Positions 1,551 to 22,810 of a DNA stretch of 64,000 nucleotides are shown in pieces. This DNA comes from Sphingopyxis sp. (lineage in GTDB: Bacteria; Pseudomonadota; Alphaproteobacteria; Sphingomonadales; Sphingomonadaceae), in NCBI GenBank assembly GCA_035685745.1, contig DASSAA010000004.1:45662-109661 (forward strand), given 5' to 3'. The notes beneath the pieces are model-generated. The model was not told the DNA's origin, searched no databases, and was given only the letters and a program-made list of their open reading frames with translations. A program made the translations under genes and the position numbers. Numbering within the stretch: position 1 is the stretch's first letter; every line of letters begins with the position of its first letter.

Positions 1551-2807
1551 TTATTCCGAAGCATCTTTCCAGTCTGGGTAACGGCCCAGAAATATAATGA
1601 AAGGCACGGCCACCAGCAGCACCGACGCCACCATCACAAAATAGGGGGCGTAGCTGCCCGAACTGTCGTAAATATATCCGGCAACAACAGGTCCTAGGCC
1701 AAAGCCGATGGAATAAAATCCAAAGCCGATGCCATAGAGAAAACCGTAATTTTTCTGTCCGAAATAGATGCTGATCAAATAGGCAATGCCTTCCAGTTCA
1801 GCGCCCAGCGCACATCCAGCGAGCGCCCCTGCCGCGACCAGCCAAGCCATATCGCCATTGGCAAAGTAAAAGATGGTCGCGGCCAGCGCTGGCAAGATGA
1901 ACGCCGCCCCGGCCACAAAGGGCGCGTGCAGGCGATCCAGCAACACGCCTGTCGCCACCCGTCCGGCAAAAGCGAAGGGACCGAAAGCCAGTGCAAAAAC
2001 CGTCGCCGCTTCAGCTGGCGTCGCCCCCACATCACGAACCATCGACGGCAAATGCACCATCAAACCGCCAAGCGACATGGACACGAAAAATCCCGGGATT
2101 AGAATTTGCCACAAGCGCCGATCGCGCAATGCATCGCGCACTTCCGCGCCATGGCCCATCACTTTTGGGATCGCAGCCTGCACGACCTCGCCCGCCTGCT
2201 GGGCCTGACGGCGCAGCAGGTCGCGTTGATCATAAAGGAAGATCAGCGCCAGCGGCAACACAACGCATAGCGCCGAGACAGCCAGCACCGGATAAACCGC
2301 ACGCCAGCCCATCGAGGCCATCGTGACCGAGGCCGCAAAGGTAAACACGATATTGGCAATGGGTAGCCCCGTCATCGTGACGGCAAGGGCAAGGCCGCGC
2401 TGCTTAGAAAAGCGCCCAGCAACCGCTTTCGTCCAAACCACCAAACTGGCCAGCGGCGCGGCAATCGCCACAAATGTCCACGCCAGATACCATGTCCAAA
2501 TCTGCGATGTTGTTAGCGACACTGTTGCCAGTGCAATCGCTTTCAACAACAGCCCGACAATCGCAACGCGCCGGGTTCCGACCCGATCGAGCAGCGCCCC
2601 GACCAAAGGGCTCAGCAGCAAAGCCCCTAGGGTCGTGATCGTAAAGCTGACAGAAATGGCCGCTCGCGACCATCCCAGCTCCGCCGAAAGAGACGGAATA
2701 ATCAGGCTCAGTGCCACTGTCTGGATCGACGATGTCGCAGCACCAGCGACGCCGACAAGCACGACCGGCCAGCCGGATTTCCATTCGGCCAAGTTAGAGC
2801 TTTGCAT
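1551..2807 (-). CDS. MFS transporter
   Basis: ORF 1551..2810, about 12 hydrophobic segments, MFS-like loop LLDRVGTRRVAIVG. The first ATG is at 2807 (2810 is TTG). Confidence 0.85.
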   Translation of the reverse strand: MQSSNLAEWKSGWPVVLVGVAGAATSSIQTVALSLIIPSLSAELGWSRAAISVSFTITTLGALLLSPLVGALLDRVGTRRVAIVGLLLKAIALATVSLTTSQIWTWYLAWTFVAIAAPLASLVVWTKAVAGRFSKQRGLALAVTMTGLPIANIVFTFAASVTMASMGWRAVYPVLAVSALCVVLPLALIFLYDQRDLLRRQAQQAGEVVQAAIPKVMGHGAEVRDALRDRRLWQILIPGFFVSMSLGGLMVHLPSMVRDVGATPAEAATVFALAFGPFAFAGRVATGVLLDRLHAPFVAGAAFILPALAATIFYFANGDMAWLVAAGALAGCALGAELEGIAYLISIYFGQKNYGFLYGIGFGFYSIGFGLGPVVAGYIYDSSGSYAPYFVMVASVLLVAVPFIIFLGRYPDWKDASE

Positions 2808-2849
2808 CAATTTATTCCGTCTCTGGGGTGCGAGAGCCGACTGACGCCG

Positions 2850-3227
2850 TCAGGCGTCAGCGTTATCAAGCTCGGCATAGATTTCGTTCGCGGCCCGAAA
2901 GGCCCCAAGCGCAGCAGGAATGCCGCAATAGACAGCGCTGTGCAGGATCAATTCCTTGATCACATCACGCTCCACACCATTGACGAGCGCAAAACGCAGA
3001 TGCAGTTTAAACTCATCCAAATGCCCGCCAGCCAGCGTCATCGACAGCGTTAACATCCGGCGCATATCAATATCCAGGCCCGGACGGCTCCACACATCGC
3101 CAAAAGCATAGCGAATGATCAGATCGTAAAGATCCTCATCAAGGCCCCCGGGGCGCGTGACAGGACCCGCGATACGCTTGCGCATCGCCATGCCGCGTTC
3201 AAATGCAGCGTCTTCGGTCTTTGGCAT
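2850..3227 (-). CDS. Carboxymuconolactone decarboxylase (AhpD-like) family protein
   Basis: The C-terminal 125 aa of ORF 2850..3365 match the CMD family (FGDVWSRPGLD..R.MLTLSMT, HSAVYCGIPAA). The long N-terminal extension overlaps the upstream gene, so the start is probably M47 (ATG 3227) or M41 (ATG 3245). Confidence 0.75.
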   Translation of the reverse strand: MPKTEDAAFERGMAMRKRIAGPVTRPGGLDEDLYDLIIRYAFGDVWSRPGLDIDMRRMLTLSMTLAGGHLDEFKLHLRFALVNGVERDVIKELILHSAVYCGIPAALGAFRAANEIYAELDNADA

Positions 3228-3279
3228 AGTAAATTTCCCAAGCATCCGGAGGCCCTTAGCCTCCGGATATGGCCCCTGA

Positions 3280-4197
3280 TCAGTCGCGGAAATGGTCCGG
3301 CATATCGCCGCCCCACTGCATCCCAACCGCTGGGCTGCGCTGATGATATCCAGTGGGATATTCATCGTTTAGCAGATCACTGTCCGTCACATGCTCAACG
3401 CGGAAATCGGACGGATCATACCAATAATCGGAAAGCGCGCCGCCAACGGCGTGACGCAGAACGCCCCATGCCGGGCGATAGCCTTTGTCCAACAGATGCT
3501 GATGGCCGATATGAACGGCATCGACGTCAATGGTTTCAAAGCAGCTATGCTGCACCGTATTGGCCGGACCATGGAACACCGCGACACTATGGTGATCGAC
3601 ATATTCCGAACCGCGTGGGAAGCGAATAAACGCACCACTGCGCACTTCGCCAGCCAGAATTTCATCGGAAATAAAGGCGCCCAGATTATCGACATACCAA
3701 TCCATCAAACGCCCCGGATTGGGCGTGTTCTGAACGACATGGGCCAAACGCAGCACCGGCGATGGCCCGCGTTCAAAAATAGGGAAACGGCCGCGACGCT
3801 GCACCAGATTGCCAGTATTTAGCGGCACCGCTTCGCGTGGCAGGGGAATTGGATCGAGTTGCTGAATGCCATAAACCAGCTCGATATCATTGCCATCGGC
3901 ATCGCGAACATTGATCTGCTTGCCGCCCCATGGGGTGGCACCGTCCAGAATCGGGGCATCAAAGCGCTTGGCCAGCGCCTCCAGCGCCTCTTCGCTTTCA
4001 ACTTCATATCCGATGCTAGCAAAGCTGCGCGGACCGCGTTCCGCGACATAAATAAAGGGACGGCTTTCATACCCCCGAAAATAGACTCGCTTTTCGTCCT
4101 CGTGGGAAACGAACATGCCAAAATCACCGAAGAAGCGCTTAATCTCCTCCATGTCGCCTTCGTGGCGGAATATCACATGGTTGATCGTGCGAATCAT
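3280..4197 (-). CDS. Two-domain VOC / type I extradiol ring-cleavage dioxygenase-like protein
   Basis: ORF 3280..4509. The recognisable protein starts at MIRTINHVIF. HHSVAVF and HAVGGALSDYWYDPSDFRVEH resemble extradiol dioxygenase metal-site motifs. GGAG sits 6 nt before ATG 4197. The upstream 100 aa of the ORF look like non-coding read-through. Confidence 0.65.
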   Translation of the reverse strand: MIRTINHVIFRHEGDMEEIKRFFGDFGMFVSHEDEKRVYFRGYESRPFIYVAERGPRSFASIGYEVESEEALEALAKRFDAPILDGATPWGGKQINVRDADGNDIELVYGIQQLDPIPLPREAVPLNTGNLVQRRGRFPIFERGPSPVLRLAHVVQNTPNPGRLMDWYVDNLGAFISDEILAGEVRSGAFIRFPRGSEYVDHHSVAVFHGPANTVQHSCFETIDVDAVHIGHQHLLDKGYRPAWGVLRHAVGGALSDYWYDPSDFRVEHVTDSDLLNDEYPTGYHQRSPAVGMQWGGDMPDHFRD

Positions 4198-4221
4198 CTC
4201 ACTCTCCATCAATTGTTCATT

Positions 4222-4239
4222 TGAGCAATCGATAGCACA
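4222..4239. promoter_or_regulatory. Candidate LacI-family operator (imperfect 18-bp palindrome TGAGCAATCGATAGCACA, central CG)
   Basis: Half-sites TGAGCAATC / TGTGCTATC match 7 of 9. It lies 13-25 nt upstream of the dioxygenase start, in the 214-bp divergent region shared with the LacI gene. Confidence 0.35.
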
Positions 4240-4411
4240 AACATGCTTATGCGCAACTACCGGATGATAGCAGCTGGTTGCACCTGCCCTGCCCATGTGC
4301 CTATGATGGACAACGCAAAAATGCGGGACGATGAAATGATGCTCCGGCTTCCAGTAAAAGGCCGGACCAGGCTTCATTTTTTCGCCACGGGAGGATGAGA
4401 ATAGGTCGCGC

Positions 4412-5425
4412 ATGGTTACCACTAAAGATATTGCAATAAAGCTTGGTTTTTCAGTGTCTACTATCGGAAGAGCGTTGTCGGGAGACCCCCGGATCAGCGA
4501 GAAAACCAAACTGGCCGTGCGCGCTGCTGCCGAGGAACTCGGCTATGTTGGCAATATGGCTGCTCGCATGATGCGCGGCGGTTCCAGCAACCTTATCGGC
4601 CTGATCTTGCCGGATATTCAAAATGATTTTTTCGCTTCTATCGCACAAGCCTTGTCGCAAAGTTGCGACCGTCAGGGCTATCGAATTGTGCTATCGATAA
4701 CCGGCGACGACCCAGAAACCGAAATGCGCCACATTCACGACTTTGTCGGTGCGCGCGTTGCCGGCATTATTTTGGTTCCCAGCGCCGACATGAAAAGAGA
4801 GAGTATCGCGCTGCTGCGGCAAGTGCAGCATGTGCAGTTGCTACGCTATGCATCGGGGCCGGATGATCTTTGGTTTGGCATTGATGATGGCGACGCCATG
4901 GAACGGGCGACAAACCATTTGTTGGATCTGGGCCATCGCCGCATTGCCTATGTCGCTGCGTCAGACCGCCTATCGACGGGCCGGCGGCGTTTGCGGGGTG
5001 TGCAGGAAGCCTATCGCAAGCGCGACCTGCCCCTTTCCGATCTGTCCGTGTTTCTCGATACGCCCACTGCCACGTGGGGCGAACGCGCCATTAACGAAAT
5101 GCTATCCATTGCCGATCACCCAACCGCCATCCTTTCAGGATCGGCGCATGTCACCATGGGCATGATTGCGTCGTTGCGACGGGCCAAGGTGGATATTCCG
5201 GGTCAAATGTCCGTGATCGGCTTTGGCGATCCCAATTGGTGCGAATGGTGGCAACCTCCGATCACCGTCATTCGCCCGCCGATCCAATCCCTCGCTACCA
5301 GCTGCGCCCTTTGGTTTATGGATCGGCTGCGAACGCCAGAAGACAGGCTGGTTTCCTCTTATCACGCGACCAGTTCTTCAGAACTGGTGCTGCGCGATTC
5401 CACGGGGCGCCCAGCCAGAAGTTAA
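4412..5425 (+). CDS. LacI family transcriptional regulator
   Basis: N-terminal HTH MVTTKDIAIKLGFSVSTIGRALSG, followed by a periplasmic-binding-protein-like sugar-binding fold. 337 aa. Confidence 0.9.
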   Translation: MVTTKDIAIKLGFSVSTIGRALSGDPRISEKTKLAVRAAAEELGYVGNMAARMMRGGSSNLIGLILPDIQNDFFASIAQALSQSCDRQGYRIVLSITGDDPETEMRHIHDFVGARVAGIILVPSADMKRESIALLRQVQHVQLLRYASGPDDLWFGIDDGDAMERATNHLLDLGHRRIAYVAASDRLSTGRRRLRGVQEAYRKRDLPLSDLSVFLDTPTATWGERAINEMLSIADHPTAILSGSAHVTMGMIASLRRAKVDIPGQMSVIGFGDPNWCEWWQPPITVIRPPIQSLATSCALWFMDRLRTPEDRLVSSYHATSSSELVLRDSTGRPARS

Positions 5426-5483
5426 GCGCCATAGATGAAGCAAGCGGCGACAAAAGGCGGAAAACTATTTTCCGCCCGATCAC

Positions 5484-6077
5484 TCAGGCCAGCCGGTTAA
5501 ACCGTTCAAAATCGGGGCGCGGGCTGCGATCAAAAATGCTGGCTGGGTCGCCATAGCCAAGGGTCGCGATAAAATTGCTCTTCACGCTCGGCTGATCGGC
5601 GAAAAAATGCCGATCAACAGCGTCATGATCAAAACCAGACATTGGGCCTGTATCTAGCCCAAGTGCCCGTGCCGCCAACAGAAAATACCCGCCTTGCAGG
5701 CTGGAATTGCGAAAAGCGGTGGTGCGGACCAATTCTTCCTTGCCCACAAACCAGCTGCGCGCATCGGCATGTGGCAACAATTCAGGCAGATGCTCGTAAA
5801 ATTCATGGTCCATACCGATAATCGCGGTCACGGGTGCACTGTGAATTTTTGCGACATTCCCCGGTGCCACCATTGCAGCCAGTTGCCCCTTCGCCTCTTC
5901 GGATACGCACCAGATGATCCGCGCTGGCAGGCTGTTGGCACTGGTGGGACCATATTTCATCAGATCCCAAATGCCGCGAAGCTGCGCTTCCGATACCGGC
6001 TTATCCAGATAGCCATTATAAGACCGCGCGCTGCGGAACAATTGATCCAGACTTTGGTCCGCAACAGGTTGCTTCAT
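5484..6077 (-). CDS. Nitroreductase family protein (RutE-like malonic semialdehyde reductase type)
   Basis: 197 aa. LFRSARSYNGYLDKPVSEAQL, GPTSANSLPARI and the C-terminal SPRPDFERF are typical of the RutE/YdjA-like nitroreductase subfamily. Confidence 0.75.
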   Translation of the reverse strand: MKQPVADQSLDQLFRSARSYNGYLDKPVSEAQLRGIWDLMKYGPTSANSLPARIIWCVSEEAKGQLAAMVAPGNVAKIHSAPVTAIIGMDHEFYEHLPELLPHADARSWFVGKEELVRTTAFRNSSLQGGYFLLAARALGLDTGPMSGFDHDAVDRHFFADQPSVKSNFIATLGYGDPASIFDRSPRPDFERFNRLA

Positions 6078-6257
6078 GGATTAATCACCTAATTATGTTA
6101 AATGGCGCCAAGGCGATAAGGCCAAGTCCGCAAGATGACGCGTCCTTAGCATCAAAAGCGACCTCACGAAAAGCCGATACCGAACAAAGGCATCAACATC
6201 CCGCGCTGCATCCATCAACGCAGCAGCATCTTCCTATCTCGTCGCGACATGGGAAGA

Positions 6258-6950
6258 TCAGCTATCCAGAAATTCAGCCAGCATTGGAATGACGATTTCG
6301 GGAGCCTCGATGGTTGGCAAATGCCCTGCCCCCGGCACTGTCGCCAGACGCGATCCTGAAATTTCCGCTGCAATTTCATCATGATGAGCACGACTGGTGA
6401 TGCCATCTTGCTCGCCCCAAATCAGCAGCGTGGGAATGGAGATTTCATGCAGACGCGGGCGACTATCGATACGGGCCATGATCGCCCGCTGCTGCGCCAG
6501 AAATGTTTCGGCGCCCGTATCCGCTGCCATCTGCCGTGCAATCGTGAGCAAACGCTCATCATCGCGACGCTCTTCCGGGAATAAAATGGGGATGCGCTCT
6601 TCCACCACCCGATCAAAATGGCCACTTTCGACCAGATCAATATAGCCTTGACGTCGCGCCGTCTGCGCTGGACCGTCAGCGGATGCCAGCGTCGAAATCA
6701 GCGCCAGCTTGGCGACCCGCTCTGGTGCCCGGCGCAGCACATCAAAGGCCACAAAGCCGCCCATCGCATGGCCCACCAAAGCAAATTTTGGCGGCGCTGC
6801 ATCCAGCAAGCGCTGCGCAAAATCTTCCATACGGTCATCGCTTTGATTGTCCGCGATGATGATATCGCGATCAGGCCAGGCGTCCAGCAGTGGCTGCCAG
6901 ACGGCATCGGTCAACAATTGGCCCGTCATCAAAACAATGGGAAGAGTCAT
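6258..6950 (-). CDS. Alpha/beta hydrolase
   Basis: 230 aa. Nucleophile elbow GHAMGG, with a C-terminal GAGHLP motif carrying the His. Confidence 0.8.
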   Translation of the reverse strand: MTLPIVLMTGQLLTDAVWQPLLDAWPDRDIIIADNQSDDRMEDFAQRLLDAAPPKFALVGHAMGGFVAFDVLRRAPERVAKLALISTLASADGPAQTARRQGYIDLVESGHFDRVVEERIPILFPEERRDDERLLTIARQMAADTGAETFLAQQRAIMARIDSRPRLHEISIPTLLIWGEQDGITSRAHHDEIAAEISGSRLATVPGAGHLPTIEAPEIVIPMLAEFLDS

Positions 6951-7092
6951 GAAAACACCTAAGAAAAGGGCGGCTTGCCAATGGCTTGCCTGATAAAATC
7001 ATTTCAATATCGCAAATATACGTCCGTCCACGCCCGGCTCCGGACTGCCCCATAGTGGTGCGGGCCGAAACGGAGCTGAGCGTGGAAAAACA

Positions 7093-8391
7093 TCATGCGT
7101 AGGCGGACGCAATCGTCGTCGTGAAGGCCGAGAAGCCAGCGAATTCCGCATCGGCGCCCATCAGCTCTTCAATGCGCAGCATCTCATTCCATTTCGCCAT
7201 GCGCTCCGACCGGGTAAAGCTGCCCACTTTAAGCTGACCGGCATCCCAGCCGGTGGACAGATGCGAGATCGTGACATCTTCGCTTTCGCCTGAGCGCGCC
7301 GAAACAATGGCGCCCCAACCACGAGTGACCGCAGCATCAAGCGCAGCCTTCGCTTCGGTCACGGTGCCCACTTGGTTCACCTTGATCAGCGCCGCATTGC
7401 AAACAGCCGCTTCGGCTGCCCGTTCAACGCGCCGCGCGTCCGTCACCAACACGTCATCGCCGATGATCTGCACCCGATCCCCGATTGCAGCGGTTACCGC
7501 AGCCATGGTCGCCCAATCATCCTGACCAGCGGGATCTTCGATCGAAAGGATCGGATAACGCTTGGCCCATTCGATGATGCGCGCGCCCATTTCTTCGCCA
7601 GAAAGGCGGCGATCATCCAACGCCAGACGATAGCCATCGGCATCGCCCAATTCATTGGCCGCAATATCCAGCGAGATGAACACATCTTCGCCTGCACGGT
7701 GGCCGCTGGCTTCAATCGCCTTGGTCAGCGTATCCAGCGCATCTTCGTTGGACGAGAAATTGGGCCACCAGCCGCCTTCATCGGCCACGCCGGTCAGCGG
7801 GCCTTTGGCTTCCATCAAAGTGCCTGCAGCGCGATAGACTTCCTCGGTGATTTCCAAAGCGCGGCGGAAGCTGCCAGCGCGGGGGCACATGACCATGAAA
7901 TCCTGCACATCGGTGCGGCGGCCAGCATGAGCCCCGCCACCAAAAATCTGAATTTCTGGCAGAGGAATACGGACTTTTTGGTCTTGCGCCAAATAACGCC
8001 ACAGCGGCTGGCCCGCTTCGGCAGCGGCAGCGTGGAGCACCGCCATCGACACAGCAACCACGGCATTTCCGCCCAACCGCGCCTTATTGTCCGTGCCATC
8101 CAACTCGCAGAGGATTTTATCGACAGCGGCCTGATCGCGTGCATCCACGCCCACCAATGCTCCGTTGATTTCAGCGCCGATGCCAGCAACAGCGGCGTTG
8201 ACACCAAAGCCACCAAATTCAGCCCCACCATCACGCAGATCAATGGCTTCATGCGCACCGCGCGATGCCCCAGCCGGCGCAATAGCCCGGCCAATAGCAC
8301 CGGATTCCAAGGTCACTTCGGCCTCAACAGTGGGCCGCCCCCGTGAATCCCAAAGCTGGCGACCAGAAACGGCGGCGATACGCGAAGTCAT
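7093..8391 (-). CDS. Divergent enolase-family protein (enolase paralogue)
   Basis: Enolase motifs DSRGRPTVEAEV, ADEGGW, SLDIAANE, LSIEDP, IIGDDV, LIKVNQVG, RSGESED and QLKVGSFTRSERMAKWNEMLRIEE. Start chosen at MTSRIAAV (ATG 8391), which overlaps the upstream kinase stop as ATGA. Confidence 0.85.
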   Translation of the reverse strand: MTSRIAAVSGRQLWDSRGRPTVEAEVTLESGAIGRAIAPAGASRGAHEAIDLRDGGAEFGGFGVNAAVAGIGAEINGALVGVDARDQAAVDKILCELDGTDNKARLGGNAVVAVSMAVLHAAAAEAGQPLWRYLAQDQKVRIPLPEIQIFGGGAHAGRRTDVQDFMVMCPRAGSFRRALEITEEVYRAAGTLMEAKGPLTGVADEGGWWPNFSSNEDALDTLTKAIEASGHRAGEDVFISLDIAANELGDADGYRLALDDRRLSGEEMGARIIEWAKRYPILSIEDPAGQDDWATMAAVTAAIGDRVQIIGDDVLVTDARRVERAAEAAVCNAALIKVNQVGTVTEAKAALDAAVTRGWGAIVSARSGESEDVTISHLSTGWDAGQLKVGSFTRSERMAKWNEMLRIEELMGADAEFAGFSAFTTTIASAYA

Positions 8392-9413
8392 GCAATAATC
8401 CTTTTCCATGAAGCAACAAGGGTGTCGATCGAAGCTGGCGCCAATAACAGCGCACGGGCCTGATCGCGCACAATGCGCTTATGTTCATCATTGGTAAGAT
8501 AGGGCGCGGGGGACTTCCCCTCCACCCGTGCCAGCAGCAAGGCTGCTGTCAATTTTCCGGCCCGCTCCAGCAGGTCCGCAGAGGCTTCCCAGTCCACGCT
8601 GGGCACATAGGCGGCGACCAGCGCGGCCGCCGATTCCGATAGCCGGGCATCGTTCAGCCACACCGCTTTCAACAGCAAATGGGTGATGCAAAAAGCAAGG
8701 TCGAAGGCGGGATCGCCATAGACGGCGCATTCCGCATCCAGAAATACTGGGCCATCAGCGCTGACGAGAATGTTTTTCGGGCTAACGTCGCCATGAACCA
8801 GCGCCGTTTTCCGCGACGATAAATCCTCGGCTAGCGCCAACAGGATTGGCGATAATTCGCTATCCTTTTCTGCTACATAGAGCAGGAATGGATCCACCCG
8901 CAGAGCGCGAAACATGTCATCATTTGGAAAGGCTTCCCGGTCGGCATCGCTGTTAGCAGTCGCAGCATGCACCGCGCCCATGGATCGGCCAACAGCTGCG
9001 GCAAAATCCACATCCACCCGGCCTTCGGTCAGCTCATCCTTCCACACCGGGCATCCGGGCAGAAAACGCATCGCAAAGGCATGATCATCAGGCAATTGGG
9101 CCAAAACCTCTGGCGCGATACGGGCATCGACCCCGCGCGCGCGCCGAAGCCAGCGAACCTCGGCCTCGCCCCGTTCCACAGGCGCCAACCATTCAGCGGC
9201 GACACGCAGCTGAGCCAAGGGCCGCTTGACAACAATCGGCCCGCCGGGTGTTTCTACCTTCCAAACGTCGCACGAGACGCCGCCGGTCAGCGGTTCAAGG
9301 GTGACATCACCCTCGCCCACCAGACCGGCGTTGCGCAATCCCTCGACGATCACAGCATCCCCTGCCACGTCAAAGCTTCTCGCGGATCCATGCGCCGACC
9401 AGATCGGCTGCAT
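8388..9413 (-). CDS. APH / choline-kinase-fold phosphotransferase (small-molecule kinase)
   Basis: Catalytic loop HGDVSPKNIL and metal-binding DAECAVYGDPAFDLAF. The start is ambiguous: ATG 9413 overlaps the upstream gene by 44 nt, and GTG 9368 lies 1 nt after its stop. Confidence 0.8.
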   Translation of the reverse strand: MQPIWSAHGSARSFDVAGDAVIVEGLRNAGLVGEGDVTLEPLTGGVSCDVWKVETPGGPIVVKRPLAQLRVAAEWLAPVERGEAEVRWLRRARGVDARIAPEVLAQLPDDHAFAMRFLPGCPVWKDELTEGRVDVDFAAAVGRSMGAVHAATANSDADREAFPNDDMFRALRVDPFLLYVAEKDSELSPILLALAEDLSSRKTALVHGDVSPKNILVSADGPVFLDAECAVYGDPAFDLAFCITHLLLKAVWLNDARLSESAAALVAAYVPSVDWEASADLLERAGKLTAALLLARVEGKSPAPYLTNDEHKRIVRDQARALLLAPASIDTLVASWKRIIA

Positions 9414-10503
9414 TTTGGCGCTCTTCGATGGAATCTTCGAAATAATGCGCACCCGGGATCAGTTCCAGACGCTTGTCCTTGGATCCAAGGAAATCAAAGA
9501 TTTTTTGTGCGTCGCTTGGGAATACGCCGGTATCCGCCGTGCCCTGCACCACCAATGATGGCGTCACATGCTTGGCCAGATGTGGCTGGCCTTGGCATGG
9601 GGAGGTTTCAAGGCTCCACATATTCAACCAGGTCTTGATCGTATTGGCACGGCCGATGCTAGGCGTGCGATTGGCGATAGCCGGAACGCCGCGATAGCAA
9701 AGATTGGGCTGACGATCTGATGGATCAATCGTAGGATCGACGCAGCGAATATCGCCCCACACGCGGAACAAGGGGAAAATGCGATCCGGAATGCCAGCAT
9801 CATTCAAACGCTTCAGTTCGGCCTTGGCCCAATCGGTGATGCGCTGGTTACGCGCCCGCTGTGCCGCACGATATTTAACAATGAATTCAGCCGAATATGG
9901 TGGGCCATTATCAGGATTGAACGGATCCAGTTCCGGATCGGTGGCCACGGGATCATTTTCATCGATCACCGATGCATCCAGCCAATCGGTCAACACTTCA
10001 GGGCGGCCCTGATGGGCGTTAAAGCTGATGTACAGATCGCCCTTCACCAATTGCGCCAGTGCATCCTGCCCAGCGGAGGACAAACGGTCCGTCAGCGTCG
10101 GCGCGATGGCTTCTGCCTGATAAGCCCCCATCAGCGAGCCGCCGCCGGAATTGCCAAGGATCACAATCTGCTCGACACCAGCAACTTCTTTCAGCCACTT
10201 CATGCCCACGCCAATATCCAAAATGGCATGTTCCAACAGGAATTGATCTTCCATGCCGCGATAGCGGGTGTTCCAACCTAGGAAACCAAAGCCCTGACGC
10301 GCAAAATATGGCGCAATATAATGTTCTGAAAAATCAACATTATAATGGGTCGCGATAATCGCAACTTTCGGGCGGGTGCCCGATTTCGTCCAATAAATAC
10401 CTTGGCATGGATGGCCGCCCGCCTGAATGCGCGGCGCCGTTGGCGATACCAACCCGACAAATTGCGCGTCCAGCCCTTCATTCCCATTGGGATTCATCAT
10501 CAT
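9370..10503 (-). CDS. Alpha/beta hydrolase (377 aa, uncharacterised subfamily)
   Basis: Nucleophile elbow ILGNSGGGSL, acid VVQGTADTG, His IPGAHYFE. Three consecutive ATGs lie at 10503, 10500 and 10497, downstream of AGGAG. Confidence 0.75.
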   Translation of the reverse strand: MMMNPNGNEGLDAQFVGLVSPTAPRIQAGGHPCQGIYWTKSGTRPKVAIIATHYNVDFSEHYIAPYFARQGFGFLGWNTRYRGMEDQFLLEHAILDIGVGMKWLKEVAGVEQIVILGNSGGGSLMGAYQAEAIAPTLTDRLSSAGQDALAQLVKGDLYISFNAHQGRPEVLTDWLDASVIDENDPVATDPELDPFNPDNGPPYSAEFIVKYRAAQRARNQRITDWAKAELKRLNDAGIPDRIFPLFRVWGDIRCVDPTIDPSDRQPNLCYRGVPAIANRTPSIGRANTIKTWLNMWSLETSPCQGQPHLAKHVTPSLVVQGTADTGVFPSDAQKIFDFLGSKDKRLELIPGAHYFEDSIEERQNAADLVGAWIREKL

Positions 10504-10523
10504 TTCTCCTGCTTATCTATAAT

Positions 10524-12158
10524 TTAGCGGGTTGCTTCAAACGGCAGTTTATAGCCATCTAGCCCGGCGCGGATCGCTTTTTTGTCGATTTTTCCAGTTG
10601 GACCAAGCGGGATATCCGCTACAAACAACACATCATCCGGCATCCACCATTTGGCGATCTTGCCATCCAAATAGGCTTTGATTTCATCAGCGGTAGCCGA
10701 CGCGCCATCTTTCAATTGGCACAGCAATATCGGGCGCTCATCCCATTTAGGATGCGCAATGCCGACCACGGCGGCAAGCGCCACAGCCTGATGACCCACA
10801 GCGATATTTTCAATCTCAATCGAGCTGATCCACTCGCCGCCAGATTTCACCACATCCTTGGCGCGATCAGTGATTTGCATATAGCCTTGCGCATCGATGG
10901 TGCTGACATCGCCCGTATCGAAAAAGCCCTCATCATCCAGCACATCGCCGCCATCACCGCCGAAATAACCGCGGGCAATTGTGGGGCCTTTAATCATCAG
11001 GCGGCCCGGGGTCTTTCCATCATGTGGCAGGCGTTCGCCCGCATCATCGACCAGCTTCATATCCAAGCCGCACAGCAGCCGCCCCTGCTTCAGCTTATAG
11101 GCCATTTGCGCATCATCGGGCATGGCCGCTACCGCAGCATTGGGCACAGCGACAGTCCCCAGCGGCGACGTTTCCGTCATCCCCCACCCCTGAATAACAT
11201 CAACACCATAATCATCGCGAAAAGTGCGGACGATGGATTCGGGGCAAGCAGAGCCGCCGATCGTCACCCGCTCCAGCGTAGTGAAGCGTTTGCCATTTTC
11301 CTGCATATATTGCAGCAGCATCTGCCACACAGTTGGTACGGCGGCGCTATAGGTTACGCCTTCCTGCTCGATCAGATTATAAATGGATTCGCCATCCATC
11401 CGCTGGCCCGGCAACACCAGCTTGGCGCCAACCGCGGGCGCGGAATAGACAACGCCCCAAGCGTTGGCATGATACATTGGCACAATCAACAACACCGTAT
11501 CACGAGCCGACAACCCCAACGCATCGCGTTGCAAGGTCATCAAAGCATGAATATAATTGGATCGGTGCGAATAAAGCACACCCTTAGGATTGCCCGTTGT
11601 GCCAGAGGTGTAACACAATCCGCAAGCCGAATTTTCATCAAAATCGCCCCAGATATATTCATCCGAATGATCGGCAATCCAATCATCAAAAGCGACGGCG
11701 GCAAAGCTCGTCTTAGGCAGTGAGGCCTGATCGCAAAAGAAAATCACCTTTTCAATGCTGGGCACTTGCGGCAGCAACTCTTCCAACAACTCAGCCGTAG
11801 CAAGGTCGGCAATCAGCAAACGATCATTGGCATGATTGGCGATATAGGCGATCTGCTCCACAAACAGGCGCGGGTTCAGCGTGTGCAGCACCACGCCCAT
11901 TCCGGCAGCGCCATACCATGCCGCCAAATGGCGTCCGCTGTTCCAGCCCATGCTGGCAACCCGGTCGCCCGGCTTCATCCCTTCTGCGGCCAGAGCATTG
12001 GAAACGCGCTTCGCATCGCGATGGATATCGGCATAATTGGTCCGCGTGACGACACCATCAGCGTCACGCGATACCACGTCGCGCTCGCCATGCCATGCTG
12101 CGGCATGATCGATGATCCGATCAACCGTCAGCGGAACATTTTGCATTAAACCGTCCAT
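10524..12158 (-). CDS. AMP-dependent acyl-CoA ligase (long-chain fatty-acid-CoA ligase-like)
   Basis: AMP-binding motif YTSGTTGNPKGV, plus GWGMTE, TGD and KSGGEWIS. The ORF extends to GTG 12167. ATG 12158 has AGAGGTGG 5 nt upstream. Confidence 0.9.
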   Translation of the reverse strand: MDGLMQNVPLTVDRIIDHAAAWHGERDVVSRDADGVVTRTNYADIHRDAKRVSNALAAEGMKPGDRVASMGWNSGRHLAAWYGAAGMGVVLHTLNPRLFVEQIAYIANHANDRLLIADLATAELLEELLPQVPSIEKVIFFCDQASLPKTSFAAVAFDDWIADHSDEYIWGDFDENSACGLCYTSGTTGNPKGVLYSHRSNYIHALMTLQRDALGLSARDTVLLIVPMYHANAWGVVYSAPAVGAKLVLPGQRMDGESIYNLIEQEGVTYSAAVPTVWQMLLQYMQENGKRFTTLERVTIGGSACPESIVRTFRDDYGVDVIQGWGMTETSPLGTVAVPNAAVAAMPDDAQMAYKLKQGRLLCGLDMKLVDDAGERLPHDGKTPGRLMIKGPTIARGYFGGDGGDVLDDEGFFDTGDVSTIDAQGYMQITDRAKDVVKSGGEWISSIEIENIAVGHQAVALAAVVGIAHPKWDERPILLCQLKDGASATADEIKAYLDGKIAKWWMPDDVLFVADIPLGPTGKIDKKAIRAGLDGYKLPFEATR

Positions 12159-12307
12159 AGCGCCCACCTCTTTGCACTCCCCAATATAGATAGTAAACTA
12201 AGCATTTTATTTTGGCAACGCCGCTTTGCTTGCTTCGACCTCATCGCTCCGCTAACTTAGGGCAGTCGGCATATTGCCTTCCCGCTGAGGTATATCGTTC
12301 GCCACCC

Positions 12308-12787
12308 ATGTCCACGCAACAGCTTATTATCGCCTTATTTCAGCGCTTTTGCTGGCTAGACGAAGGATTGCAAGCGCGCCTTCACAATCGTGGATGGCCA
12401 GATATCAGCCGACCCCAGTCAATGATCATGACCAATATCGTCAGCAATATCACCCGACCATCCGATATTGCGCGCAATTTAGGCCTTTCACGACAAGCCA
12501 TCCACAACACCATCAACCAGATGGTTAAAATGGATATCGTTCGCCTCACCCCCGACCCTGACGATCGCCGACACATGATCTTGTCGCTTACCGAAGCGGG
12601 CGCAAGGATGCGGCATGATGCGCAGCAAGCGATGGATGCGTTAACCGGTCAAATCGCCGAAAAGCTTGGGGCTGAGCAATTGTCAGCCCTGATGCAAATG
12701 CTTGAGGCCGACTGGGGCGATAATATGGAAAACCATAGTCCAGCCGACCCTAGCCCAGCTTATCAAAAAGCCGCCGCGCGCCTATAA
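12308..12787 (+). CDS. MarR family transcriptional regulator
   Basis: Winged-helix core PSDIARNLGLSRQAIHNTINQMVKMDIV.L.PDPDDRR. Start taken at MSTQQL (ATG 12308). The longer ORF from 12212 is probably leader sequence. Confidence 0.85.
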   Translation: MSTQQLIIALFQRFCWLDEGLQARLHNRGWPDISRPQSMIMTNIVSNITRPSDIARNLGLSRQAIHNTINQMVKMDIVRLTPDPDDRRHMILSLTEAGARMRHDAQQAMDALTGQIAEKLGAEQLSALMQMLEADWGDNMENHSPADPSPAYQKAAARL

Positions 12788-12859
12788 CGCCGTACCAATT
12801 GTAACGCCGTGTCAATTCGCGCGGTCGATTAACGCAAAAATCTCGCCGCCGTCGGATCC

Positions 12860-13435
12860 TTAGGCCGCAAGCGCGCGGGTAACCGCAACCATGCGAGCCG
12901 CTGTCATCTCGATCAGTGATGCCGGCAGCGCGTCGACCAGATTTCCATCCTCGTCAAATGCCGTATGTGCAGCGGGAATCAGCACCTGTTCCGGAATAAC
13001 CAGGCTTTGAACGGTGGAGAGAATCTGCCGCAAATGCGTCGCCGCACGAATACCACCAAAGGGACTGAGCGATGCCGACATCACAGCGCTGACCTTGCCG
13101 CGATAGGCTGCTAGCGCCACCAGTGATTCGCTGCCGGTGGGGCGCGAAGCCCAGTCGATCGCATTTTTCAGCAGCGGCGTGATGGAGCCATTATATTCCG
13201 GGGTGACAAACAGCAGCCCATCCTGCTCGGCAAATAAAGTCTTGAGCCGCTCGGCATCGGCAGGAAAATTATCCGCCTCAAGCGCGGCCGAATAGAGCGG
13301 CAAATCAAATTGTGCCAAATCCACATGGGTGACCTTGGCACCCTGTACTTCAAGCGCACGGATCGCCAAATCACCAAGCTTCCGGTTAAAGGAGCCTTCT
13401 CTCGTGCTTCCCACTATGACCGCAATTTTTGTCAA
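12860..13435 (-). CDS. NADPH-dependent FMN reductase family oxidoreductase
   Basis: MTKIAVIVGSTREGSFNRKL and FVTPEYNGS motifs. TTG start with GGGAGGG 4 nt upstream. Confidence 0.85.
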   Translation of the reverse strand: MTKIAVIVGSTREGSFNRKLGDLAIRALEVQGAKVTHVDLAQFDLPLYSAALEADNFPADAERLKTLFAEQDGLLFVTPEYNGSITPLLKNAIDWASRPTGSESLVALAAYRGKVSAVMSASLSPFGGIRAATHLRQILSTVQSLVIPEQVLIPAAHTAFDEDGNLVDALPASLIEMTAARMVAVTRALAA

Positions 13436-13505
13436 TCTACCCTCCCGATATAATGATTAGCCTCCTAAGCTATCAATCGGAAGTGGTGCAAGCCCCTTGG
13501 TGGTG

Positions 13506-14012
13506 TCAGGCCTTGATATCTGACACCACCGTCAATTTTTCCGTTTCATCGGCCAGATTGTCGATCACCCGCCGCATCAAGGCCTGCAAGCTTTCTACCT
13601 CATCATTGCTCATGCCGCGCGTTGCAATTTCATGCACTTCGGCGTTCATCGGCGCGAGGATCAATTCCAATTCCTTGGCGTGCGGCGTCAGATATATGAA
13701 TGTTTTCCGGCGATCTTCATTGGTTTTCTTGCGGGTGATAAAGCCCGCTTTTTCCAAGCCTTTCAGCGCCACCACAGTCGTCGGCTCACGCATCCCCACA
13801 CGCTTGCTCAATTCGCGCTGGGTGATTCCATCTTCGCGCCACAACTGCCGCAGAAACCGCCATTGACCCGCGGACACCGAATGGGTCAGCGTTCCTCGTT
13901 CCAGCAGGGTAGAGAAGGACCGAAAAACAATGCGCGCCAGATAGCCAATACTATTTGTCGGGTCCGTATAATAATCCGCCGGATGCCGAAGTTTCTGGTT
14001 GTTTTTTATCAA
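13506..14012 (-). CDS. MarR family transcriptional regulator
   Basis: GITQRELSKRVGMREPTTVVALKGLEKAGFI.R....DRR. 168 aa, TTG start preceded by GGGGAGGGG. Confidence 0.85.
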   Translation of the reverse strand: MIKNNQKLRHPADYYTDPTNSIGYLARIVFRSFSTLLERGTLTHSVSAGQWRFLRQLWREDGITQRELSKRVGMREPTTVVALKGLEKAGFITRKKTNEDRRKTFIYLTPHAKELELILAPMNAEVHEIATRGMSNDEVESLQALMRRVIDNLADETEKLTVVSDIKA

Positions 14013-14109
14013 GTCTCTTCCCCTCCCCTCAACCCCTAGAGTCCAATGACTCGGGCCGCAACAGGCTTTGGCTCTTTGATAGCAGTAGACAAAAGCGGTC
14101 CACCAGCTT

Positions 14110-14125
14110 ACTTAGCATACTAAGT
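14110..14125. promoter_or_regulatory. Near-perfect 16-bp palindrome ACTTAGCATACTAAGT upstream of leuD
   Basis: 14 of 16 positions are self-complementary. It ends 16 nt before the leuD ATG, in the divergent MarR/leuD region. A related box lies at 16307..16326 upstream of leuC. Confidence 0.3.
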
Positions 14126-14140
14126 TATTGGAATAGATAT

Positions 14141-14731
14141 ATGCAAAAATTTACCCAACTGACGGCCGTTGCCGCTCCACTCGCCATCGCCAACATCGAT
14201 ACAGATATGGTCATTCCGGCCAAATATATGCAAGCGCTCACCCGGAACGGCCTTGGAAAACATCTGTTTCAGGAAATGCGCTATCATGACGATGGCACGG
14301 ATCGTGCGGATTTCATCCTCAACAGCGAAGCCTGCCGCAAGGCGCGGATTTTAATTGCTGATCGCAATTTCGGATGCGGCTCGTCCCGCGAACATGCCGT
14401 TTGGGCGCTGACCGATTTCGGAATAGCCTGTGTTATCGCGCCCAGCTTTGGCGATATTTTTTCAAACAATGCGCGAAAAAATGGCCTGCTGCTGATTCGT
14501 CTGGCGGATGATCTTTGCGAACGCTTGCGCGCTGAGATGGCTTTATCGCAATATGCGCCCATTACGGTTGATCTAGAGGCGCAGCAAATCCGCTTAGCAT
14601 CTGGCGAGATCATCCCCTTCGATATCGATCCCGATGATCGCCACACGCTGATGGAGGGGCTGGACGATATCACCCGCACCCTGCGCCATGAAGCCGCGAT
14701 CACGGATTATGAAGCGCGCGCGCTAATCTAA
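14141..14731 (+). CDS. leuD: 3-isopropylmalate dehydratase small subunit
   Basis: MQKFTQLTAVAAPLAIANIDTDMVIPAKY ... NFGCGSSREHAVWAL is canonical LeuD. The ORF-track start at 13955 is an upstream extension that overlaps the MarR gene. Confidence 0.9.
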   Translation: MQKFTQLTAVAAPLAIANIDTDMVIPAKYMQALTRNGLGKHLFQEMRYHDDGTDRADFILNSEACRKARILIADRNFGCGSSREHAVWALTDFGIACVIAPSFGDIFSNNARKNGLLLIRLADDLCERLRAEMALSQYAPITVDLEAQQIRLASGEIIPFDIDPDDRHTLMEGLDDITRTLRHEAAITDYEARALI

Positions 14732-14812
14732 AGCTGCTCCTTGAAGCTGAAAGCAGCTTCAGGCGGAAGATACCTCTCCGCCCATTTCCCTACCACCATC
14801 ATGGCGGGCCAA

Positions 14813-14839
14813 GCCCTGCCCCGGCAAACGGGGCAGGGC
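14813..14839. terminator. GC-rich hairpin between convergent leuD and leuC (11-bp stem GCCCTGCCCCG / CGGGGCAGGGC)
   Basis: Perfect inverted repeat with a 5-nt loop in the 118-bp convergent spacer. Neither side has a strong U-tract. Confidence 0.45.
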
Positions 14840-14849
14840 ATAATTCCCG

Positions 14850-16280
14850 TCAGCCGGGCAGTTGAGCAAGGCTGGCGGGATCGGTAATATAGCCCGCAAT
14901 CGCGCTGGCCGCGGCCAAGGCCGGGCTCATCAAATGGGTGCGCCCGCCCCGCCCCTGTCGATTTTCAAAATTGCGGTTGGAAGTGGCGGCACAACGCTCA
15001 CCCGGCTGCAATTTATCCGCGTTCATGCCGACACACATAGAACAGCCCGGCTCGCGCCAATCAAAGCCTGCGGCCTGCAAAATCTGGTCGATCCCTTCGG
15101 CCTCAGCCTGTCTTTTCACCAACCCCGAACCCGGCACGACCATAGCGCGCACATGCGGCGCAATCTGCCGTCCCTTCACAATATCCGCAGCGATCCGCAA
15201 ATCTTCAATCCGGCTGTTGGTGCAACTGCCAATAAACACCCGGTCCAGCCGCGTCCCCGCGATGGGCGCGCCCGCCTGCAAATCCATATAGGCCAAGGCG
15301 CGGGCCGCCGTGGCGCGGGCTTCATCATCCGGCAGCGCCTCTGCCATCGGAATATGACCATGAATGGCAACCACCTGCGACGGGTTGGTTCCCCAGCTCA
15401 CCATCGGCGCGACACTCGCGGCATCAAGCGACACTTCGCGATCATAAGACGCCCCCGCATCGGAAGGCAGGCTGCGCCAGCGCGCCACGGCCTGATCCCA
15501 TGCCTCCCCCTGTGGTGCGGCGGGCCGCCCTTTCACATAAGCATAGGTTACCTCATCGGGCGCAATCAGCCCGGCCCGCGCGCCCATTTCGATGCTCAAA
15601 TTGCACAGGGTCATCCGCCCTTCCATGCTGAGCGCGCGGATAGCCGCGCCGCAATATTCGATCACATGCCCCGTCGCACCATCCACCCCGATGATGCCCA
15701 GCAGGTGCAAAGCCAGATCTTTGGCGGAAACATGAGCAGCCAATTCGCCATCCACCAGCACCCGCATATTTTTAGATTTGCGCTGGCGAACGGTCTGGGT
15801 TGCCAGCACATGCTCCACCTCGGATGTGCCAATACCAAAGGCCAAAGCACCAAAAGCGCCATGGGTGGAGCTGTGGCTATCCCCGCAAACAATGGTCATG
15901 CCCGGTTGCGAACGCCCCTGCTCCGGGCCGACCACATGGACAATGCCGCCGCGCGGATCGCCCATCGGGAAATTCTCCACCCCGAAACGGCGGGTATTTT
16001 CCACCAGCATTTCCAACTGCGCCCGCGCCGCAGGATCGCGAACGCCTGCAGGCCCGGCCGCCTGCCCTTCGGTTGGCACATTATGATCGGATAAAGCCAG
16101 CGTCAGTTCGGGACGGCGCACTGGCAGACCCGCTGCATCCAAGCCAGCGAAAGCTTGCGGCGACGTGACCTCGTGCAGCAGATGCAGGTCGATATAGAGC
16201 AATGTTTCCCCATCATCGTCCGCCACGGCGTGCGCGTCCCAAATTTTATCATAAAGCGTGCGCGGATTTGCCACTGTCAT
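14850..16280 (-). CDS. leuC: 3-isopropylmalate dehydratase large subunit
   Basis: [38 protein letters not shown] and CSMCVGMN (aconitase-family Fe-S ligands). ATG 16280 ([12 protein letters not shown]) is preferred over the TTG at 16298. Confidence 0.92.
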
Positions 16281-16515
16281 CGAAATGCCTAGCCTCAAAG
16301 CGAAAATACTTAGATAGCTAACTTATAAGCTGGATGTTCGAGATCGGGCAAGGCTTTTCAAGACATTGGTCGCAAGCAATTCGGAGCATCGCACGATCAT
16401 AAGGCTCAATATTGGATATAATTTTCGTAAATGCTCGGTAAGCTCCCAGCCGCAAGGCGCCTTCTTTCGTGATGGCGCGCCACTGTTTCAAGCGGCTTGA
16501 TCTTGCACCAGCGCA

Positions 16516-16540
16516 TTAATTTGCTTAGCAAGCTAATTAA
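16516..16540. promoter_or_regulatory. 25-bp near-palindrome TTAATTTGCTTAGCAAGCTAATTAA
   Basis: 20 of 25 positions are self-complementary (outer arms TTAATT/AATTAA, inner GCTT/AAGC). It lies in the 350-bp non-coding region between leuC and the DMT gene. Confidence 0.25.
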
Positions 16541-16646
16541 ATAATTACTGCCGGCGCAACCGGTGATTCTATGCAAGGGAAAGACGCATGATATCGCAAA
16601 GGCTGGGGTTCCAGACCAACAGTGAAACCATGCGGCGCTGCCCGGC

Positions 16647-17558: not shown

Positions 17559-17615
17559 AACCTCGCTAAATCTCGATCAGGCAATCACCATCATCCGGCT
17601 GAGGTCGCCGGATTG

Positions 17616-19250: not shown

Positions 19251-19404
19251 GTCGGCAAATCCTTTTCTATGGGAGCAAAGCCTCACACCGTCCTGACAGC
19301 ACGGCAAAACAAAGGAATAGCGCCCCGCCAAAGCCAAGGCCAGCCTTGTAACAGGATCAAGACGAATAGCCGGGCCTGATCAGAAAGAAGAGTGTAGTGC
19401 GCCC

Positions 19405-22517: not shown

Positions 22518-22810
22518 CCGGCCTCCTTAGCCAGCATCCCCTGCACTGGCAAGCTGAACTTGATCGGTGGCGCCTTTGCATCGGCCTCGCCCTTAGCCCT
22601 CTGAGCGCCGTTAGCGCCGTTGACGCCCTTGTCTGTCGCCTCCGCTTCCATCACCGCAGCGTCCAGCGCCTTAACCCGCGCGTCAATTTCCGCGCTCGCC
22701 TTCTCATAACGCTCGTCAAAGCTCGGCTGCTTCGAACAGGCCGCAAGCGCAGTTAAAAAAGCGGGCACCAGCAACAAAGGCTTCAAGTCGCAGGGAGAAG
22801 ATCGCATCAT
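22502..22810 (-). CDS. Small lipoprotein, translationally coupled to tamB
   Basis: Lipobox LTALAAC, followed by a coiled-coil-like DERYEKASAEIDARVKALDAAVMEAEA and a low-complexity tail. ATG 22810 shares its A with the tamB TGA (TGATG). Confidence 0.6.
   Translation of the reverse strand: MMRSSPCDLKPLLLVPAFLTALAACSKQPSFDERYEKASAEIDARVKALDAAVMEAEATDKGVNGANGAQRAKGEADAKAPPIKFSLPVQGMLAKEAGSSGE

Follow-up and report, generated by a model that had tools for sequence, protein, structure and literature searches.

What pathway would need an enolase made together with a small-molecule kinase? This question is raised by a locus of Sphingopyxis sp. on contig DASSAA010000004.1 (positions 45,662 to 109,661, forward strand), a stretch of 64,000 nucleotides hereafter referred to as the window, whose own numbering is used throughout. 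Four minus-strand genes are packed there head to tail, encoding an acyl-CoA ligase, an α/β-hydrolase, a kinase of the APH fold and an enolase-family protein. An earlier interpretation (the sequence-only reading) took them for a dedicated pathway with an enolase other than the ordinary glycolytic one and offered two precedents: levulinate catabolism with the related ACAD10/11 enzymes, and the ceramide-phosphoglycerate genes (cpgABC) of Caulobacter crescentus. Here we show that the functional core of the operon consists of its last two genes only, kinase and enolase. The idea of a dedicated pathway is supported by the conservation of this pair, by an active-site signature of its enolase and by copies on plasmids. 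The feature is real, coherent and more general than was thought, and neither of the two proposed homologies explains it. With moderate confidence, and judging from sequence comparisons, we propose that an APH-fold 2-kinase acting on a glycerate-like acid would feed a dedicated enolase that forms phosphoenolpyruvate (PEP) or an analogue of PEP.

A kinase and an enolase form the core of the operon

The two core genes are:

8388..9368, minus strand: APH-fold small-molecule kinase of the MtnK/PsiK-like branch (PF01636), the proposed 2-kinase of a glycerate-like hydroxy acid
7093..8391, minus strand: variant enolase (Enolase_N and Enolase_C) with the substitutions E168D and H373A in yeast numbering

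All four open reading frames (ORFs) described by the sequence-only reading are present and packed as claimed. Direct reading of the sequence places the TGA of the kinase across the ATG of the enolase, as ATGA at 8391-8388. The hydrolase TGA at 9372-9370 is followed by one base and then GTG 9368, and the ligase TAA is separated from the hydrolase ATG by 20 nt that contain AGGAG. Two kinase starts had been offered; GTG 9368 (326 aa) is preferred over ATG 9413, which would overlap the hydrolase gene by 44 nt, since kinase homologues are mostly 325-327 aa long and the kinase of Sphingopyxis macrogoltabida likewise starts 1 nt past the hydrolase stop. The genes for ligase, hydrolase, kinase and enolase are one operon, their packing is far from chance, and the same order recurs in other genera.

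A profile built from 50 diverse members of the kinase family was scanned against one genome per species, which yielded 80 loci from Alpha- and Betaproteobacteria, Actinobacteria (Streptomyces), Acidobacteria and Chloroflexi. An enolase gene lies near the kinase gene in 63 of these; kinase is followed by enolase on the same strand in 59 of the 63, and the spacing is within ±60 nt in 54. Eight or nine of the 17 loci that lack an enolase are contigs ending just after the kinase. Of the 80 loci, 32 also encode a D-2-hydroxyacid dehydrogenase, for the most part as the gene that immediately follows the enolase. Clustering of the neighbours of the 80 loci found, beyond enolase and dehydrogenase, no gene family common to more than about ten; FAH, VOC, cupin, FMN reductase, Zn alcohol dehydrogenase, LacI and TRAP genes recur in subsets only. 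The co-conservation of all four genes, which the sequence-only reading had suggested surveying, thus stands for kinase and enolase, which are widely kept, and fails for the ligase, a lineage-specific gene: ligase1-type genes occur in five of the 80 loci, and, among loci with the pair, the ligase is limited to those of Sphingopyxis, of Novosphingobium, of the window organism and of one metagenome-assembled genome (MAG) of the Caulobacterales.

The kinase family is large, with 616 clusters at 50% identity matching at E<1e-30. A tblastn search of plasmids with the kinase retrieved 33 records, and the pair is found on accessory plasmids of Burkholderia pseudomallei (conjugative), Rhodococcus opacus, Rhizobium, Paracoccus, Methylobacterium nodulans and the haloarchaeon Halomarina. 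Three predicted proteins (P0381, P0299 and P0331) join a kinase domain to fragments of enolase domains.

The linked enolase has an altered active site

By its overall features the window protein is an enolase. It matches PF03952 and PF00113, and scores 466 bits with the canonical enolase model (EC 4.2.1.11; TIGR01060), above its cut-off of 300. It is 43.5% identical to the Escherichia coli enzyme, the reference sequence of which was entered by hand, and 52-69% identical to type-A linked enolases of other orders. Its best match in the PDB is a Chloroflexus enolase (4yws, 390 bits), and the PDB sequence search found no solved structure of the variant subfamily.

The window protein was aligned with 63 kinase-linked enolases and the same E. 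coli sequence. Like canonical enolases, the variants share the two-domain fold, and the window protein and 63 out of 63 linked enolases keep (in E. coli numbering) the magnesium ligands D246, E290 and D317, the catalytic K342 and E209, K393, and the phosphate clamp R371/S372. They differ in two residues that are equally uniform: QEF has become QDF (E168D in yeast) and SHRSGE has become SARSGE (H370A in E. coli, H373A in yeast), again in the window protein and all 63 others. Further changes around the active site replace G by A, A by W, T by V and Y by W, with GDEGGYAP turned into ADEGG[WYF]WP, KTG into KVG (LKVG) and KYN into KWN (AKWN). A second, rarer subtype has the enolase before the kinase and the motif LADEGGLSP, and shares both key substitutions. 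The QDF/SARSGE signature was also found by motif check in a chromosomal Sphingomonas copy and in nine plasmid-borne copies, from Rhodococcus (two species), Rhizobium (two species), Paracoccus, M. nodulans, B. pseudomallei and a haloarchaeon.

In the complex with 2-phosphoglycerate, Glu168 and His373 flank the C3 hydroxyl of the ligand, and both are reported to be important for catalysis from mutagenesis by Poyner, Reed, Brewer and colleagues. Their uniform replacement suggests an altered substrate or an altered catalytic tuning. Since the phosphate-binding Arg and Ser are retained, a 2-phospho-carboxylate substrate can be argued for.

The evidence supports the view that the kinase-linked enolase is a specialised, non-housekeeping paralogue tied to the kinase. 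Unlike canonical enolase it is always paired with a kinase and often plasmid-borne, and since several copies are on plasmids it is probably not the housekeeping eno. This plasmid location of homologues would also imply a canonical eno elsewhere in the genome of the window organism; a tblastn search found no second enolase within the 64-kb window. In the NCBI records of the plasmids L090-L097 the variant enolase is named 'eno, phosphopyruvate hydratase, glycolytic process' and the partner dehydrogenase 'C-terminal binding protein', names that are probably systematic over-annotations.

The kinase belongs to the MtnK/PsiK-like branch of the APH fold

The kinase is recognised by PF01636 (E 3e-20). 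Compared to solved structures, its family profile is closest to the methylthioribose (MTR) kinases 2olc and 2pyw (E 1e-17), followed by corramycin phosphotransferase and PsiK, and matches ACAD11 (8v3v) with an E-value of 0.007 (18 bits). An AlphaFold2 (AF2) model with a mean predicted local distance difference test score (pLDDT) of 69.5 gave PsiK, MtnK, LxmK and NahK as top Foldseek neighbours; ACAD11 was not among the top 50 matches. Judged against ACAD11, the kinase has no specific likeness to the ACAD11/LvaA clade. MtnK and PsiK are the closest solved relatives by both profile and fold, and share with the family the catalytic motifs HGD..N and D.E. The kinase differs from MtnK in scoring 50 bits with TIGR01767, the cut-off of which is 275, and in its neighbours, which are enolase and dehydrogenase instead of mtnA and mtnB.

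Only APH-type models match the kinase; no match to folds of the GarK/GlxK, MOFRL or P-loop GLYK type and no match of the LCB5/DAG-kinase type was obtained. Particular to the family are the invariant residues R66, R157, K234, R281 and Y290, of which the four basic ones would be compatible with an anionic substrate. In addition to the enolase fusions, P0313, P0374, P0278 and P0310 join the kinase to a genuine UxuA mannonate dehydratase (720 aa), a MobA-like nucleotidyltransferase (P0374, 519 aa) and long N-terminal regions of 270-690 aa that have no Pfam match.

Dehydrogenase and plasmid contexts are related to glycerate and sugar acids

The dehydrogenase that follows the pair in many relatives has as nearest solved relatives a glycerate dehydrogenase/glyoxylate reductase (2cuk, 185 bits) and a phosphoglycerate dehydrogenase (1wwk), and it passes no curated equivalog model. 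Informative contexts are provided by plasmids. The B. pseudomallei plasmid has a series of genes for a short-chain dehydrogenase/reductase (SDR), UxuA, GntR, a UxuA-like protein, another SDR, an SMP-30 lactonase, an FAH-family (LRA6-like) hydrolase, kinase, eno, a sugar ABC transporter and RraA. Paracoccus has LacI, then kinase, eno, an LRA6-like FAH protein, two SDRs and a sugar ABC transporter. Both FAH proteins, that of Burkholderia and that of Paracoccus, come nearest to 2,4-didehydro-3-deoxy-L-rhamnonate hydrolase, with respective scores of 426 and 352 bits that fall short of the cut-off (500), and NCBIfam naming of the SDRs in both clusters was uninformative. In Halomarina the pair lies amid galactonate and MR/MLE dehydratases, a DapA-family aldolase, glucose dehydrogenases and RraA. 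Two Rhizobium plasmids combine LysR, PEP carboxylase (ppc), dehydrogenase and kinase, with the variant eno a few genes away.

By their predicted gene products these plasmid contexts have the layouts of non-phosphorylative sugar or sugar-acid oxidation, with aldose dehydrogenase, lactonase, dehydratase and diketo-hydrolase or aldolase genes around the pair. A hexonate passing through such routes would give pyruvate and glycerate, by way of a diketo-hydrolase or of an aldolase followed by oxidation, and the glycerate so formed would then need phosphorylation and dehydration to PEP. The serine cycle and the ends of non-phosphorylative sugar-acid routes likewise combine a glycerate dehydrogenase/hydroxypyruvate reductase, a glycerate 2-kinase, an enolase and optionally a PEP carboxylase, in that order; here, in contrast, the kinase is of the APH fold and the enolase is a dedicated variant instead of the housekeeping one.

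No described class of glycerate kinase is known to have the APH fold. Three such classes have been described (PMC2063504), and a known form was present in only ~53-67% of two genome sets, one of HomK-encoding and one of ThrB-encoding genomes (bioRxiv 10.1101/2024.10.14.618325). There would thus be room for a further glycerate kinase, and the APH-fold enzyme, if it is one, would be a fourth class.

Proposed function and alternatives

We infer substrate, phosphorylated position and product as follows. In the many relatives that have it, the D-2-hydroxyacid dehydrogenase would optionally reduce a 2-oxo acid to a glycerate-type acid. The MtnK-like kinase would phosphorylate glycerate, or a closely similar 2,3-dihydroxy acid, at its 2-hydroxyl. 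From the 2-phospho acid so formed the translationally coupled enolase paralogue would make PEP, or an analogue of PEP, by dehydration, and this product would enter central metabolism. The pair would be a terminal funnel, fed by different upstream pathways in each lineage; in sphingomonads the feeders would be the ligase and two α/β-hydrolases, which presumably provide the free hydroxy acid from an ester, the other half of which would become a CoA thioester. Glycerate as substrate class is supported by the glycerate-related partner dehydrogenase together with the sugar-acid contexts, and PEP as product by the PEP carboxylase in the same gene string of two Rhizobium plasmids.

Several points weigh against this proposal. 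Ordinary D-2-phosphoglycerate would need only the housekeeping enolase, which leaves the invariant replacement of Glu168 and His373 unexplained; that two catalytic residues are invariantly replaced suggests that the true substrate differs from D-2-phosphoglycerate. The nearest relatives of the kinase act on an anomeric sugar hydroxyl (MtnK) or on a phenol (PsiK), not on a hydroxy acid, and the AF2 models of kinase and hydrolase are of moderate confidence (pLDDT ~70). Most of the 80 loci have the pair without informative neighbours, and the case for sugar acids comes from a few annotated plasmids. No enolase lies near the kinase in its closest relatives beyond the Sphingopyxis group (L012, L013 and L014): the Caulobacterales MAGs L013 and L014 keep the dehydrogenase without the enolase, L013 together with the 377-aa hydrolase, and the Sphingosinicella locus L012 has only MarR and sulfotransferase-like genes beside the kinase. 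Finally, a literature search found no description of the kinase-enolase pair, nor a biochemical or genetic datum for any of its members.

A tentative alternative keeps the chemistry and changes the substrate. The kinase would then make L-2-phosphoglycerate or a C3-substituted 2-phospho-2,3-dihydroxy acid, from sources such as 2,3-dihydroxybutanoate, erythronate, threonate or tartrate, and the variant enolase would be specialised for this compound, which the housekeeping enolase could not use. Such specialisation agrees with the presence of E168D and H373A in every kinase-linked enolase checked, from several bacterial phyla to a haloarchaeon. By general enolase enzymology, shortening or removing residues on the C3-hydroxyl side would enlarge the pocket, and the accompanying changes (GYAP to G[WYF]WP, KTG to KVG and KYN to KWN) are hydrophobic. 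The diketo-hydrolase of the L-rhamnonate pathway, to which the Burkholderia and Paracoccus hydrolases are closest, releases an L-2-hydroxy acid, and the 6-hydroxy analogue of its substrate would yield L-glycerate. However, the dehydrogenase is of a D-specific family and the UxuA of these contexts passes the D-mannonate dehydratase model, both of which favour D-glycerate, and the adjacent PEP carboxylase in Rhizobium fits PEP, which is compatible with L-2-phosphoglycerate but not with C3-substituted products.

The levulinate precedent leads to an improbable alternative, in which the ligase supplies a hydroxyacyl-CoA or hydroxy acid, the kinase phosphorylates its β- or γ-hydroxyl and the enolase-like enzyme takes the α-proton and expels the phosphate. 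Pseudomonas putida LvaA and ACAD10/11 are APH-fold kinases that phosphorylate 4-hydroxyacyl-CoAs ahead of elimination (PMC10802472, PMC11342911). The window operon has in common with LvaA/LvaC and ACAD10/11 the APH fold, a hydroxylated acid as presumed substrate and, as a catabolic operon, a CoA ligase. Furthermore, the structural neighbours of the kinase include LxmK, a lanthipeptide kinase described as part of the 'lexapeptide dehydratase complex', a few loci have enoyl-CoA hydratase or CoA-ligase genes near the pair, and a pocket widened towards the leaving group could conceivably fit a phosphate. Yet neither the operon nor its conserved relatives have a partner of the acyl-CoA-dehydrogenase fold, and CoA-related genes are missing around most copies of the pair: the ligase is no constant companion, and only five of the 80 loci have an enoyl-CoA hydratase gene at a distance of up to 5 kb. 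ACAD11 is a marginal sequence match. In the enolase fold, as is generally known, a pair of Mg2+ ions stabilises an enolate derived from a free carboxylate rather than from a thioester, and Asp168 is negative where the leaving phosphate would sit. The Arg and Ser clamp for the Cα-phosphate of 2-phosphoglycerate is intact in the enolase, which points to retention of the phosphate rather than its elimination, as does the linkage to PEP carboxylase, so the partner enolase probably keeps the phosphate. With a kinase nearer to MtnK, a conserved phosphate clamp and a rare ligase, the Lva/ACAD10-11 logic is not supported as homology, judged through ACAD11, and is weak as a mechanism.

A reading in which the enolase is no more than a further glycolytic isozyme, and its place beside the kinase has no functional meaning, is very improbable: the protein does score above the cut-off of the curated eno model and NCBI annotates all copies as phosphopyruvate hydratase, but the adjacency, usually with overlapping stop and start, is kept in 54 of 63 loci across phyla, some predicted proteins are fusions, and every kinase-linked copy checked has the diagnostic signature.

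Caulobacter CpgA is a PgsA-domain transferase, CpgB a ceramide kinase of the LCB5/sphingosine-kinase type, CpgC a protein without conserved domain and CpgD a cytidylyltransferase (PMC9393093, PMC12275187), so that by the published descriptions these families include no APH-fold kinase, enolase or α/β-hydrolase, and act on membrane-lipid substrates. An anionic sphingolipid head-group pathway related to cpgABC is therefore contradicted at the level of protein families and extremely improbable: the host is a sphingomonad and thus related to other sphingolipid-making Alphaproteobacteria, the 377-aa hydrolase has homologues of 75-78% identity in Caulobacter mirabilis and Phenylobacterium, and phosphoglycerate chemistry occurs in that lipid pathway, as CpgD uses 2-phosphoglycerate (PMC12275187), but the operon has no membrane or lipid-handling gene, no PgsA-type transferase or cytidylyltransferase is among the annotated ORFs of window positions 1551-19337, the flanks are leuC/leuD, MarR, FMN reductase and LacI instead of spt or ceramide genes, and the pair extends far beyond Caulobacterales and Sphingomonadales to Streptomyces, Rhodococcus, Burkholderiales (including Burkholderia), Acidobacteria and haloarchaea, which are not known sphingolipid producers.

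Accessory genes in sphingomonads

The remaining structural genes of the cluster are:

10524..12158, minus strand: lineage-specific accessory gene for an AMP-forming acyl-CoA ligase (PRK06018 subfamily, close to the DmdB type)
9370..10503, minus strand: 377-aa serine α/β-hydrolase, esterase-like with a large cap insertion (GNSGG motif, fold search)
6258..6950, minus strand: PcaD-like α/β-hydrolase of 230 aa, conserved in the downstream part of the sphingomonad cluster

The ligase has AMP-binding and AMP-binding_C domains and matches NCBIfam PRK06018 at 865 bits; with the model of 3-(methylthio)propionyl-CoA ligase it reaches 741 bits, under the cut-off of 822. The 377-aa hydrolase has weak matches to α/β-hydrolase families only. 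Its nucleophile motif is GNSGG, and Asp324 and His353 are invariant. The nearest folds of its AF2 model (pLDDT 70.7) are monoglyceride lipases and cinnamoyl, feruloyl and chlorogenate esterases, with TM-scores of 0.45-0.6; these are generic esterase/lipase neighbours, alike at the level of the fold, and the search gave no pointer to a substrate. Copies of the protein in Sphingomonadales and in some Caulobacterales share 75-91% identity.

Sphingopyxis and Novosphingobium have, in this order, a divergent MarR, ligase, 377-aa hydrolase, kinase, enolase, D-2-hydroxyacid dehydrogenase, 230-aa hydrolase and sometimes a second ligase. Sphingomonas has HMG-CoA-lyase-like and MhpD-like hydratase genes in place of the ligase and otherwise the same order. 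The window organism has lost or lacks the dehydrogenase of its relatives, no remnant of which was found by tblastn within the window, and this absence accounts for the 142 nt (6951-7092) between enolase and 230-aa hydrolase. A weak terminator-like hairpin lies at 7111-7096. Exact copies of the operon were found only on metagenome contigs of one study.

The 377-aa hydrolase also precedes the kinase in an Actinomycetes MAG that has the pair and in a Caulobacterales MAG without an enolase nearby, and a Burkholderiaceae MAG has a different esterase, of the PHB-depolymerase family, ahead of the pair. The recurrent order of esterase, kinase and enolase suggests that an ester can be the source of the hydroxy acid. 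The ligase, together with MarR, may handle the acyl half of such an ester, which is speculation.

Putative regulation by MarR

Two further features lie upstream of the ligase gene:

12305..12787, plus strand: MarR-family regulator (PF12802 and PF01047), divergent from the operon
12187..12225, minus strand: conserved promoter/operator-like motif 5' of the ligase gene (promoter scan and alignment with relatives)

The MarR ATG at 12305 is 146 nt from the ligase ATG, in agreement with the distance of about 150 bp that had been claimed, and the divergent MarR gene is kept beside the operon in Sphingopyxis, Novosphingobium and Sphingomonas. The promoter scan identified TTGCCA-17 nt-TACTAT on the minus strand at 12218-12190, inside a motif conserved in Sphingopyxis and Novosphingobium. 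The block GCGGCGTTGC[AC]AA..AAAT.CTTAG..TACTA is kept in four relatives and overlaps both the -35 and the -10 element; no inverted repeats were found in the MarR-ligase intergenic region at seed 6. The operon is probably repressed by the divergent MarR, with this block as a putative operator.

Flanking genes

Conserved synteny in Novosphingobium and Sphingomonas first led to the suspicion that two aconitase-like genes at 13955-14731 and 14850-16298 belong to the pathway. They were rejected as ordinary leucine genes, since they score above the LeuD and LeuC equivalog cut-offs. In the window leuD (13955-14731, plus strand) and leuC (14850-16298, minus strand) are convergent instead of forming a leuCD operon, and leuD is separated from the ligase-to-enolase operon by two MarR genes and an FMN reductase gene. 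Convergent leuC/leuD and MarR genes beside the operon were also found in Novosphingobium (L006) and Sphingomonas (L088 and L089), with an FMN reductase near in L088 only. The FMN_red-type NAD(P)H oxidoreductase of the window (12860-13435, minus strand) recurs near the pair in L005, L088, L090, L091 and L095, which comprise sphingomonads, Rhodococcus and Rhizobium, in the latter two beside a Zn alcohol dehydrogenase.

On the other side, a RutE-type malonic semialdehyde reductase (5484-6077, minus strand; 277 bits with a cut-off of 152) lies between the 230-aa hydrolase and LacI, a position it does not have in relatives. Positions 1551-5425 encode LacI, a two-domain VOC protein that by weak matches is extradiol-dioxygenase-like, a PcaC-like CMD protein and an MFS transporter, beyond which genes for a TonB receptor and an FAH-family protein are seen on the longer contig L001. 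Rhizobium, Rhodococcus, Streptomyces and Halomarina likewise have VOC, cupin and FAH genes beside the pair. Elsewhere in the window, an ORF of 1425 aa was noted at 22810-27087.

The G+C content of Sphingopyxis is well above 60%. That of the window is ~57%, its proteins are 80-90% identical to those of Sphingopyxis, and matches at 98-100% were found only with metagenome contigs from one study. The window organism may belong to an undescribed sphingomonad lineage.

Implications

The annotations 'phosphopyruvate hydratase' and 'aminoglycoside phosphotransferase' are probably misleading for the members of the pair, which affects many genomes of several phyla as well as metabolic models. The variant family is a natural experiment on Glu168 and His373 of enolase, in which both are replaced in all members checked and the other catalytic machinery is kept. 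To our knowledge, the enolase subgroup proper has been treated so far as catalysing a single reaction. The linked enolases might, though we doubt it somewhat, be the first functionally divergent branch within this subgroup, turning a 2-phospho acid closed to the housekeeping enzyme, such as L-2-phosphoglycerate or an analogue substituted at C3, into PEP or a substituted enol-phosphate, in which case the partner would found a new family of APH-fold 2-hydroxy-acid 2-kinases. The MobA-like nucleotidyltransferase fusion hints that kinase relatives may make 2-phospho acids for nucleotide activation; if so, these would be the type of enzyme still missing for the supply of 2-phospholactate in the synthesis of F420-type cofactors.

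The pair is small and soluble and occurs in culturable, genetically tractable hosts, so that its function is directly testable. If the kinase is a glycerate-type 2-kinase, it would fill part of the gap in genomes that lack a known glycerate kinase, and it would define how non-phosphorylative hexose and sugar-acid routes end in soil bacteria and haloarchaea, where these last steps have been missing.

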